A stretch of DNA of 64,000 nt from an uncultured Verrucomicrobiae bacterium (GCA_963706715.1 CAVPNI010000001.1:733289-797288); one strand, 5' to 3'; shown: positions 2,488 to 50,397, numbered from the stretch's first letter. The notes: a model not told the origin generated them from the sequence alone. Made by a program: numbers and translations.

Positions 2488-2647
2488 TAGAAACTCCGGA
2501 GGAACACCGAGCCGTGGGAACAGCTGGGATAGTAGCCTGTCCGGCTTTGCCGGACAGCCCCTCCCCTCACAGGGGCGAAACTTGGCGGGAGCCAAGCGAG
2601 GCAAAAAGAACGACAAAGCGTGGTCATTTTATAGGGGTTATGCTATA
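2488..2647. mobile_element. Truncated copy of MITE family A (right ~160 bp with right TIR)
   Basis: It aligns with the right half of the copies at 37772-38029 and 49475-49732 (ggaacaccgagccgtgggaac...ggtcattttataggggttatgctata). The left half is replaced by a fragment of the S-type short repeat (ctgacgttatgcacttttag, 2471-2490). Confidence 0.75.
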
Positions 2648-37771: not shown

Positions 37772-38029
37772 TATAGCATGACCCCTATAAAATGACACAT
37801 GAGTTGTCCGGGATTTTTTCTTCAGAGTTTGTTTTAACAAGCTGGCCATATCTGTAGATACGGACGGATTGTTGAAACAAAGTCTGGTGGAACACCGAGC
37901 CGTGGGAACGGCTGGGGTAGCCTGTCCGGCTTTGCCGGACAGCCCCCCTCACAGGGGCGAGACTTGGCGGGAGCCAAGCGAGACAAAAAGAACGACAAGG
38001 CATGGTCATTTTATAGGGGTCATGCTATA
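37772..38029 (+). mobile_element. MITE family A, full copy 1 (258 bp including flanking TA)
   Basis: Perfect 24-bp TIRs: tatagcatgacccctataaaatga / tcattttataggggtcatgctata. The interior is nearly identical to 49475-49732. The track ORFs 37785-38009 and 49488-49712 are artefacts of this repeat. Confidence 0.9.
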
Positions 38030-48002: not shown

Positions 48003-49290
48003 TTAAATATTGGGGACCAGGGAATAACCATGTTTTGCTGCGAGTTTAGAAAGAAGGCGTTTTTGGGAGAGAGCAACCTGCTCATGGTAAACTTCGAGGC
48101 CCCTTTCAACGTAGGGGAAGCCGTGTACCATAACGCGCCAAAAAAGGGCGGCCAACTTACGAGCCAGGGCTTTATTAGCAACTAAGTCGGATCCTTTCCC
48201 TTACAAAGAGTCATAAGTAAACGGTGGAGATCTTTAATTAGAGGAGCATTGCAGCCTCCAATCCTTTTTGTTGCGCTGGGAGTTGAGGGAGGCTGAAGGC
48301 CTTGAACACTTTTCCTGTAATAGCTCTTCTATGGCTTGGTCACATTGCCTAACGAGCTCCTGGCAAAAATGCCATGCATCATAAGCTTGTCTAAGGGCAA
48401 AGAGATGCTGTTTGGTCCAAGTCCCACGCAAACTCTCAATTACTCGATGGCGCTTTGCCCTCTGAATCTGGAGGCTACAAAGAGAAAGCAACACTTGAGG
48501 ATCACGCTCGCCCTTTAGAATGGCTTCAATCACCTTAAGTCCACTAACTCCGGAAAGTGAACGAATTACGTCATGAAACTTGATATTCATGCGTTCCAAG
48601 GCCTTCTGCATATGCTGTACATGGCTAGCTGCTGCTCTGATATGATCGCTTCGCAAACGCAAATAATCCTGCAACTGCCGAATATAGCAAGGCCCGTATA
48701 AAATGATCATGGATTTGACTGAAATTTTGGCTCCAGGCAAGACGCAAAAAAGAGGCCATATCTGTAGATACGGACTATTTTTTGCAACAAAGCTTGGAGG
48801 CAACACCTGGCCGTGGGAACGGCCGGGGTAGACTTGCCGAAGGCAAGCCCCGAAGGGGCGAGACTCAGCGGGGCTGAGTGAGTCAAAAGGGCGGCAAAGG
48901 CGTAATCATTTTATACGGGCTTTGCTATATTGGCCTGAGGTACAAAACCACCTTTTAATAGGCCATGAGCATGCAAAGTTGCTATCCATTGGCAGTCGGC
49001 CATATCCGTCTTCCTTCCAGGTACATTGCGTACGTACTTATCATTAACCACTTTTATCTCTATGCCGCTCTCCTCTAAAATCTCATACAAGGCTATCCAA
49101 TAAACTCCAGTAGCTTCCATTGCCACCGTACACACCTCTTCTTGAAGTAGCCAATCGCGCAGGGCGTGCAACTGACTGGTAAAGGTTCCAAAAACCTTAG
49201 GTGCTCCTCCGGCAATAGAAACGTGCATGTGTTCACTGTACGCTCCATAGAAACGCCGGCCATTTTACAGCTTGACCTGAGCAACCTTAC
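48003..49290 (-). pseudogene. IS110-family transposase, degraded (MITE insertion, internal deletion, N-terminal frameshift)
   Basis: The N-terminal domain reads ...CTVAMEATGVYWIALYEILEESGIEIKVVN...GRKTDMADCQWIA.LH..GLLKGGFVP. The middle reads IRQLQDYLRLR...LSGVSGLKVIEAILKGERDP...LRGTWTKQHLFALRQAYD. The C-terminus, VANKALARKLAALFWRVMVHGFPY...* (48003-48178), is not in the track. The Transposase_20 core between them is missing. An 11-bp inverted repeat ccactaactga lies at 47987-47997 and 49296-49306. Confidence 0.75.
48683..48929 (-). mobile_element. MITE family B, copy 2, inserted in the IS110 transposase gene
   Basis: It is inverted relative to copy 1 and flanked by TA. Removing 245 bp (the element plus one TA) rejoins ...GGFVPQANI|RQLQDYLRLR... 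in frame. The frame offset between the track ORFs is 422 nt, and 422-245=177, which is divisible by 3. Confidence 0.9.
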
Positions 49291-49345: not shown

Positions 49346-50397
49346 ATGCTATTGTTTGGACGCGGGTCCAACTTTCCTGACCCACTCGTTATGTCGAGGA
49401 GCCCCTTTTTGATAAGCCGGGCTCATGTCCATGCTGATGAGTTCGATTTGATCTACCTTGCCTCCGTGAGCTTTTATAGCATGACCCCTATAAAATGATA
49501 CATGAGTTGTCCGGGATTTTTTCTTCAGAGTTTGTTTTAACAAGCTGGCCATATCTGTAGATACGGACGGATTGTTGAAACAAAGTCTGGGGGAACACCG
49601 AGCCGTGGGAACGGCTGGGGTAGCCTGTCCGGCTTTGCCGGACAGCCCCCCTCACAGGGGCGAGACTTGGCGGGAGCCAAGCGAGGCAAAAAGAACGACA
49701 AGACATGGTCATTTTATAGGGGTCATGCTATAGTTCGCTGGCAAAAGTTTTCAAAGATTCCGCGCTGCGACCTTCCACCATCAGAAGTAGTTTATGGGTG
49801 TCAGCATCGAGAATATTTGTCACGTAACGTTGTCCTCGTCGGGAGCGTGTTTCCTCCACTGAGATGCGCCGCACTTCTGCTCAGGATGTTTTGGCATGGG
49901 CCTCTTCCACGTAATGGGCTGCCACTCTCCATAGCCGGGTATCTCTTCTTTTAGGGTCTCGGACACTGCCACCATGGGCATTTCCCAAGCCAGTAATACC
50001 ATCTATTTAAGATAACCAGACTGAGGTTCTTCGCTCCTACTTCCTAAAAACAGGCCAATTATCTTGAATAGATGGTATTACATGGTGAGGGCTTCAAATA
50101 GCAGGGTGAATCCGCTTCCTTCTCTGGCCCAGGGTACGGCTACGCTCAATACTCCATGTTCTTCGCAGTTGCTTCGGGGTACTCGCGCTTCCAGAAAGCA
50201 CTCGTATTGGCAAAAGTTCAGGTGTCTTCATCGCTTGATACTGGTATCATGTGTCGCACATTTTTCCCACATTCCGGGCAACCAAAACGCTTTCCGCTCT
50301 CAAAATCTATTTTAAGTATCAACTTTCTCGGATTCCCTTCAAATTGACATTCTTTCACTTTCCATCCGGCTTCAAGTTGCAACGCCGCTGTAAACAT
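49346..50397 (-). pseudogene. ISL3-family transposase remnant (N-terminal zinc-finger part and middle part), disrupted
   Basis: MFTAALQLEAGWKVKECQFEGNPRKLILKIDFESGKRFGCPECGKNV (zf-ISL3-like). ...MPMVAVSETLK.... ...VDQIELISMDMSPAYQKG (compare IQAVCLDMSGIY in the 58460-59175 copy). It has several frame breaks, carries a MITE A copy, and is truncated by the IS110 element. Confidence 0.55.
49475..49732 (+). mobile_element. MITE family A, full copy 2 (258 bp including flanking TA)
   Basis: It has the same TIRs as copy 1 and only a few substitutions. It is inserted inside the ISL3 remnant. Confidence 0.9.

Follow-up and report, generated by a model that had tools for sequence, protein, structure and literature searches.

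A four-hairpin cassette carried by small mobile elements recurs across the Chthoniobacterales with its pairing kept by compensatory change

Small non-autonomous mobile elements of the order Chthoniobacterales carry a discrete, optional cassette of about 85 nt, in which four consecutive hairpins change their stem sequences and keep their pairing while the loops and linkers around them stay almost constant. The cassette came to light in two related families of MITEs, A and B, within a 64,000-nt stretch of DNA (hereafter the window) from an uncultured verrucomicrobial bacterium. Its discreteness and its order-wide conservation in unrelated carriers go beyond what the first-pass annotation of the window had recognised. 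Our preferred reading, held with moderate confidence, is that the cassette is selfish, a passenger module that folds on itself and travels with small non-autonomous mobile elements across the Chthoniobacterales.

The source genome (G000) comprises 3.04 Mb in four contigs with 47% G+C, and the window corresponds to C1:733289-797288. Genome-wide, about 314 termini have the form TATAGC-N8-TATAAAATGA; they belong to terminal inverted repeats (TIRs) of 24 bp that bound short, non-coding, multi-copy elements. The superfamily contains about 126 paired elements, all TA-duplicating MITEs, including 29 full copies of A (~258 bp, 97–100% identical), 24 full copies of B (~247 bp) and 48 short forms (164–167 bp); the remaining members are singletons of 110–341 bp whose TIRs have other central octamers. 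In the window, the four full copies of A and B lie where the first-pass annotation had placed them, and the kinship of the two families is supported; a partial A copy also exists, with its start at 2491 and not, as first given, at 2488 (Table 1). The further proposal that the repeats are MITEs with a TA duplication of the IS630/Tc1-mariner type is confirmed by 21 elements with paralogous empty sites in the genome that mark TA as a true target-site duplication. One TA is present in 14 of these, the same TA shifted by the alignment in 3, and TATA in 2, where the element boundary as drawn took in an extra TA. For example, the B copy inside the IS110 transposase gene (C1_781971_782217) has nine paralogous empty sites, from which it differs by the element plus one TA.

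Table 1. Positions of the mobile elements, their parts and the group II intron copies (window numbering, except for contig positions, which carry the prefix C).
Feature	Position	Strand	Remarks
MITE family A, full copy, 258 bp including the duplicated TA	37772..38029	+	TIRs 37772-37795 and 38006-38029; sequence read
21-mer core, quasi-palindrome CCATATCT GT AGATACGG, tip of the element-wide foldback	37844..37864	+	
Four-hairpin cassette, variant VA (AACACC ... GCGAGAC)	37891..37984	+	absent with exact boundaries from A-short; covariance model score 73.7 bits
MITE family A, second full copy	49475..49732	+	core 49547-49567, cassette 49594-49687
MITE family B, full copy, 247 bp	25587..25833	-	core 25742-25762, cassette variant VB 25632-25714
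MITE family B, full copy inside IS110 transposase gene	48683..48929	+	core 48754-48774, cassette 48802-48884
Truncated older family A copy (A positions 108-258, 90% identity)	2491..2647	+	cassette variant VA2 ~2503-2600
1030-bp IS630-family IS, left part, continuing to ~64390 past the window	63361..64000	+	TIR TAGAGCATTTTACATTTAAGTAG
Group II intron copies	C2:258348-260420; C3:129745-131817; C1:668250-670322		~10 in total in the source genome

IS elements, MITEs and introns abound in the source genome, in contrast to two genomes of the same genus (G003 and G004, each 0.9 Mb in a single contig and highly reduced), in which neither MITE nor cassette is found. It looks as though the genomes had reached different stages of reduction. 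Among the MITE families of the source genome, the TIRs vary in their central octamer (ATGACCCC, AAGGCCCG, GAAACGCC, GAAAGTCC, GAAATTCG, GAAGAACG), which is nevertheless matched between left and right in each element, even where the interior is 98% B-like. This concerted change of the octamer occurs in a genome with just one type of IS that has these outer motifs.

The structural body of these elements is a rod. The whole element folds end to end, with TIR–TIR pairing, arm–arm pairing and the central 21-mer as a hairpin at the tip (folding z of about -13, with RNA or DNA parameters). In an alignment of ten short families, two of which come from sister genomes, 93% of the cells in the rod are paired, compared with 42–49% when the partners are slid, and 27 of 64 pairs show two-sided changes. 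All four full copies in the window contain the 21-mer (GGCCATATCTGTAGATACGGA) without a mismatch, where 0 exact matches would be expected by chance. It had been described as invariant, which is true of the A and B copies; in other families the loop differs. Its stem holds a conserved A.C mismatch.

The cassette projects from one arm of this rod as a side branch. One might suppose that such an asymmetric insert is tolerated filler, which must fold on itself to spare the TIR–TIR rod and amounts to neutral packaging for IS630-type transposition. Both the one-armed position of the cassette and the covariation of the long-range pairs of the rod agree with this supposition. Yet one and the same cassette, loops and linkers included, recurs across the order in carriers whose ends are unrelated, as head-to-tail arrays and as solo copies, which makes the supposition very improbable.

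From 5′ to 3′, the cassette (77–98 nt) consists of AACACC, hairpin 1 with a GGGA loop, GGGGUAGAC, hairpin 2, hairpin 3 (CCC-GNA-GGG), CGAGAC, hairpin 4 with a GGGA loop and GCGAGUC, and is followed by AA. The four hairpins have the sequences that were first described; the sole refinement concerns hairpin 1, which is better drawn with a 6-bp stem, a GGGA loop and an ACC/GGU extension. They had been taken for a conserved part of the MITE families, a view that holds for their pairing but not for their place, as the cassette is separable and is not part of the MITE backbone. On three backbones, the short forms (A-short, B-short and C-short) are the long forms minus the cassette, with exact boundaries: the block that they lack runs from AACACC to a point five to seven bases past hairpin 4. 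Two sites are used, site R after GGAGG(C) in the right arm and the mirrored site L after TTTCAG(C/T)C in the left arm. Both directly precede an A-run (AAA), and hairpin 4 always points toward the nearer TIR.

Several arrangements illustrate this modularity. Variant VA is common to two different backbones, two different variants stand in tandem at C3:267615-267955, and around the copy at C1:613031 no backbone can be recognised. Mini-elements of 110–139 bp hold one to three hairpins; independent dispersal of single hairpins was considered and ruled out, hairpins 1, 2 and 4 being nearly confined to cassettes. In environmental contigs from two unrelated runs, an A element is present without the cassette, and in the four environmental runs examined MITE copies appear on short contigs only. 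The presence or absence of the cassette could alternatively result from precise deletion at the CAA/AA microhomology and subsequent recombination between families, and not from insertion. In the source genome the short cassette-less MITEs are about as abundant as the cassette-bearing ones (48 against ~62), which argues that the cassette gives no obvious advantage in transposition with IS630 enzymes.

Comparison with the IS elements of the source genome suggests how the carriers may move. The TA-duplicating, rod-shaped MITEs would be mobilised in trans by IS630-family transposases. An IS of 885 bp, present elsewhere in the genome in about five apparently intact copies, has B-type ends and encodes HTH_Tnp_IS630 and DDE_3 domains in two frames. 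No IS with the A-type octamer (ATGACCCC) was found in the genome, and A shares only the outer TATAGC and the inner TATAAAATGA. When MITE TIRs are set against IS630 ends, there is thus a match for B and none for A. The IS630 gene at 63419, which had been put forward as the partner of both families, is part of an IS of 1030 bp with 14 full copies and ends of the form TAGAGCATTTT(T/A)CATTTAA; these ends, reading TAGAGCATTTTACATTTAAGTAG in the window, differ from those of A and B and rule it out as their parent. It has eight 164-bp MITEs of its own (e.g. C1:368735-368900), the interior of which, arms and core, is homologous to the interior of the A, B and C MITEs. The suggested link to this IS thus applies to a sister family with an A/B-like interior and fails for A and B themselves. 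Regardless of their ends, all short forms measure 164–167 bp.

The 885-bp IS, whose ends match, would therefore be the candidate mover of B, while the 1030-bp IS probably moves the sister family with the same interior. One MITE interior is joined to the ends of two distinct IS630-family transposases, the DDE domains of which share only 34% identity. The possibility that the hairpins are remnants of a parent IS terminus, or derive from an IS interior, was also ruled out, because the similarity between MITE and IS ends after the first 25–28 bp. In both transposases the coding sequence is divided between two frames, and the frames overlap at a run of A (A9 in the 1030-bp IS, TATAAAAAAA in the 885-bp IS); split-frame sites lie at 63750-63766 of the window (1030-bp IS) and at L035:330-395. 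As several copies share this arrangement, it suggests frameshifting or transcriptional slippage rather than decay.

Maintenance of the stems by compensatory change, which had been claimed from A and B alone, is confirmed both within the genus and across the order. A covariance model was built from ten cassette variants of the source genome. In the within-genus alignment of 21 sequences, 90.9% of the cells are paired and 14 of the 23 pairs show double changes, a number reached by 0 of 500 shuffles. The order-wide alignment comprises 83 matches (77 distinct) from at least 16 genomes, fitted to the structure of the covariance model; here 91.4% of the cells are paired, against 35–42% in slid controls, and double compensatory changes occur in 21 of the 23 pairs. 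For example, the pair 9–25 is found as GC (31), CG (24), AU (14) and GU (4). Independently of the structure of the model, RNAalifold recovers hairpins 1 and 2.

While the stems change, the unpaired parts remain near-constant throughout the order, namely the AAYACC leader, the GGGA loops of hairpins 1 and 4 and the GGRUAGAC linker. Hairpin 3 (CCC-GNA-GGG), the CGAGAC linker and the tail GCGAGUCAA are likewise near-constant. Overall, the cassette varies 2–3 times less than the backbone, as judged from within-family substitutions. Changing stems between constant loops and linkers imply that something common to the order recognises the cassette. The transposases, which vary from carrier to carrier, do not qualify as this recogniser; a host protein, a dedicated enzyme or an RNA partner may do so.

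Covarying stems could also arise as a mutational by-product. Template switching, also known as quasi-palindrome correction, would re-perfect the palindromes and recombination would swap hairpins, leaving a structure without a role. Such a process fits the high-copy variants VA and VB, in which all 23 pairs are Watson–Crick, and for stems that differ wholesale and not stepwise (e.g. hairpin 2 of A, B and F). It is also in line with stem positions that are, within families, no less variable than loop positions, and with the covariation of both TIRs in the central octamer. What it leaves unexplained are the constant unpaired GGGA, GUAGAC, CGAGAC and GCGAGUC across the order, the persistence of uncorrected G.T mismatches on one strand and the fixed order and number of the hairpins. 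We consider this origin improbable; quasi-palindrome correction may help to keep the stems perfect.

The distribution of the cassette is broad and uneven. The covariance model matches 61 of 151 Chthoniobacterales genomes at E<=0.001, and at this threshold the other 90 contain no cassette. In each of four families of the order, 10–15 of the 15 sampled genomes carry it. Copy numbers are high, with 78 in the source genome, 51 in G099, 44 in G133 and 23–74 per genome in one family (f13). Outside the order, a sample of about 146 genomes of the phylum, which doubles as a specificity control for the model, gave zero matches at E<=1e-5. An exact 19-mer from the 3′ part of the cassette occurs in more than 120 stretches of a species-representative genome collection. 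Among the matches listed, the titles name Chthoniobacterales, Spartobacteria, Terrimicrobiaceae, Udaeobacter, Chthoniobacter and 'Xiphi' MAGs, and the remaining ones bear a broader verrucomicrobial label or, in a few cases, just 'bacterium'. At an earlier stage, blastn of family A against 40 relatives, with weak hits in the same genus, had suggested a genus-specific element, a suggestion overturned by the covariance model. Likewise, a scan of the genome contigs for the exact hairpin 1 motif GCCGTGGGAACGGCYGGGGTAG yielded 0 matches, because the stems vary.

The same 19-mer is found in 39 predicted viral or proviral contigs of IMG/VR (L238-L276), and the full cassette in 9 of the 12 that were tested. 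Such contigs may act as vehicles that spread the cassette among members of the order; alternatively, the provirus calls may include host DNA.

In other genomes, the carriers have inverted repeats that are unrelated to those of the source genome and to each other, and many cassette copies sit at contig ends, as is typical of repeats. Head-to-tail arrays of cassettes are observed in G133 (C1:62229-62488, C1:310325-310656 and C9:116986-117348, with periods of 87, 123 and 103–174 nt), from which it follows that the cassette multiplies outside TIR-bounded carriers. Tandem repeats with units of 7–8 nt (GGGAAATA, GCTGAAAA, AGGGTTGA, GTGAATG) adjoin the cassette on its 5′ side in several genomes (L043:1440-1500, L074, L083, L098 and L085, from G115, G033 and G133); in a second sample of 53 cassettes, they were present on the 5′ side in 4 and on the 3′ side in 0. 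At L044:1076-2836 (G089), a cassette lies between two tRNA genes within a dense array of at least 12, and others have a single tRNA gene no more than 150 nt away (L055, L068).

The two strands of the cassette-bearing elements are not equivalent. In all eight MITE families of the source genome, the plus strand, reading AACACC, folds 10–30 kcal/mol better than its complement, owing to G.T pairs that become A.C on the other strand (54 versus 11 in the consensus rod). The order-wide cassette alignment has the same excess (G.T 35 versus A.C 14, p = 0.004), and the smaller within-genus alignment has none (26 versus 25). That one particular single strand, DNA or RNA, is the folded form is suggestive only, given that the families are related and that both aligners favour G.U.

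No orientation bias relative to flanking genes was detected, either in the source genome (18 co-oriented versus 13 anti-oriented for cassette-bearing elements, 31 versus 38 for all elements) or in other genomes (16 versus 11); these tests used crude ORF calls, and at the GC-rich foreign loci many cassettes overlap long, possibly spurious ORFs. Random insertion relative to genes speaks against a host-serving cis-regulatory RNA. Consensus scans revealed no sigma-70-like promoter in the elements and a terminator-like site solely at the central 21-mer of B. No T-run or U-tract follows any of the four hairpins, so that the suggested terminator cassette is not supported. Rfam 15, at gathering and permissive thresholds, gave no match on the window, nor on the A and B copies at E<=10, and for 20 foreign loci it returned only tRNAs at E<=0.01. 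A literature search on repeats in Verrucomicrobia found none. A structured motif with such well-supported covariation is thus missing from Rfam.

A host-serving structured RNA or ssDNA element (small RNA, processing or stability element, protein platform), captured and spread by MITEs, would make recognition sites of the conserved GGGA (GNRA-type) loops and of the linkers, and with no Rfam match it would be a new family. The strong covariation, the conservation of motifs and of all four helices across the entire order, the loops of the GNRA and C-GNA-G types and the excess of G.U over A.C pairs on one strand are all in keeping with such a function. Indeed, order-wide conservation of loops and linkers is unusual for purely selfish DNA, counts against the passenger reading and fits a host function equally well. 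The genomic behaviour of the cassette is that of a repeat: 20–75 copies per genome, many of them at contig ends, tandem arrays and a location inside mobile carriers, with no preferred orientation to flanking genes, no internal sigma-70-like promoter and no U-tract. Its patchiness, with absence from 90 of the 151 genomes of the order and from both 0.9-Mb genomes of the same genus, points the same way. A host RNA is for these reasons rather unlikely, and it deserves to be kept in mind.

Hairpins without TIRs or evident target duplication of their own also recall REP/REPIN-like or IS200/IS605-PATE-like elements, which would be mobilised as ssDNA by a hairpin-recognising Y1 (HUH) transposase. In REPs, the foot of the palindrome bears a conserved tag, GTAG or CGTC (PMC3733652), and the GUAG that adjoins the 5′ side of hairpin 2 in many copies would be this 'GTAG tag'. 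The better folding of one strand is compatible with such a mechanism, as are the clusters and tandem arrays, known for REPs and BIMEs, and REPIN–RAYT systems are long-lived and vertically inherited (PMC3116915). This place varies, however, among the copies, which read UAGAC, CAGAC, GAGAC or GUGAC, and the cassettes are not arranged as inverted doublets. Their orientation relative to the replication strand, taken from GC skew, is unbiased (63 versus 51, p = 0.30). REPs flank their RAYT gene (PMC3116915), whereas no cassette (E<=0.1) lies within 1.5 kb of the eight Y1 genes of G133, G091 and G107, and neither the source genome nor G099, with their 78 and 51 cassettes, contains a match to Y1_Tnp (PF01797). 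There is in our view only a slender chance that the cassette belongs to this class.

For the passenger module that we prefer, the following course of events may be proposed. In the source genome, the cassette would hitch-hike as an optional insert in IS630-mobilised MITEs. The selected feature would be the fold of one strand, as ssDNA or RNA, needed in cis for the copying or retention of the cassette, its carrier or both. The fold might offer a landing pad for a host or element protein conserved in the order, or serve a nested mobile unit as the structure by which it is recognised. The cassette would pass from carrier to carrier at [G/C]^AAA sites, through insertion or recombination, and would serve its own spread, not the neighbouring genes. 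By analogy, one may go further and imagine the cassette as the non-coding half of a REPIN–RAYT-like partnership, whose ssDNA or RNA would be recognised through the invariant GGGA loops and linkers by a candidate protein conserved in the Chthoniobacterales. This protein would either copy the cassette into other small elements, at their [G/C]^AAA sites, or employ it in the role of a functional RNA. Such a partnership is speculative and, as we see it, doubtful; if true, it would define a new class of hairpin-guided mobile or regulatory element, beyond MITE cargo.

Another mobile element of the source genome inserts beside these hairpins. A group II intron of 2073 nt, starting with GTGTG at its 5′ end and containing a reverse transcriptase ORF, is present in about ten copies, all located outside the window, and inserts a few bases after hairpins. 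One copy directly follows a MITE core hairpin and others lie inside hairpin 1 of the cassette, with the junction ...CCCCAGCCG^. Class C introns target terminator-like stem-loops, and by analogy the intron appears class-C-like in its insertion behaviour. With such introns landing at its hairpins, the cassette shapes where other mobile elements go. A resemblance between hairpin 1 (GAGCCGU...ACGGCU) and group II intron domain V was considered and taken as a coincidence, the real link being the insertion of the intron beside hairpins.

The elements can be placed among known bacterial repeats. RUP of Streptococcus pneumoniae was reportedly linked to IS630-Spn1 by Oggioni and Claverys in 1999. It is listed among the bacterial MITE repeats (PMC3184786). 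The MITEs described here resemble RUP and Stowaway-like MITEs by their TIRs, TA duplication, lack of coding capacity, tens of copies and rod-like foldback, and by sharing their genome, here for B, with an IS630-family IS whose ends match. They differ in that their interior is not derived from the IS and is joined to the ends of two transposases only 34% identical, and in that they hold an optional cassette conserved far beyond the host genus. BOX of the pneumococcus and BIMEs of enterobacteria are modular mosaics of small hairpin units (PMC3184786, PMC2817692) and, like the cassette, multi-copy intergenic repeats of short hairpin modules with predicted secondary structure, in variable combinations or arrays. 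In the cassette, unlike these mosaics, the four hairpins are fixed in order as one unit that is conserved with covariation order-wide and nested in TA-duplicating MITEs.

REPINs share with the cassette a definition by hairpins, a non-autonomous nature, long life in a lineage, clustering and supposed folding as ssDNA (PMC3116915). The cassette is longer, with its four hairpins, does not form inverted doublets and occurs in a source genome without Y1 transposase and, elsewhere, away from Y1 genes. The SDRs of Nostoc, of 21–27 nt, are said to be nested in MITEs and other conserved sequence, as Elhai et al. reported in 2008. They likewise represent very small TIR-less repeats inserted inside MITEs, in contrast to which the cassette has 77–98 nt, four helices and conserved loops. 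Finally, bcr1 of the Bacillus cereus group is a mobile repeat of ~155 bp whose cruciform-like fold is kept by compensatory changes (PMC3184786), as in the cassette; bcr1, by contrast, has 5-bp direct repeats and is known to be transcribed. Maintenance of a fold by compensation (bcr1) and modular hairpin repeats (BOX, BIME) are therefore already known (PMC3184786, PMC2817692).

MITEs are usually seen as transposon ends enclosing arbitrary filler, and here the filler is the conserved part. A module of four helices keeps its loops, linkers and pairing throughout an order while the surrounding transposon ends are swapped, and one MITE interior can be refitted with the ends of two distant IS630-family transposases. 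The Chthoniobacterales thus provide a natural system for the role of single-strand folding in small mobile DNA, whether in transposition, retention, the capture of host factors or as RNA.
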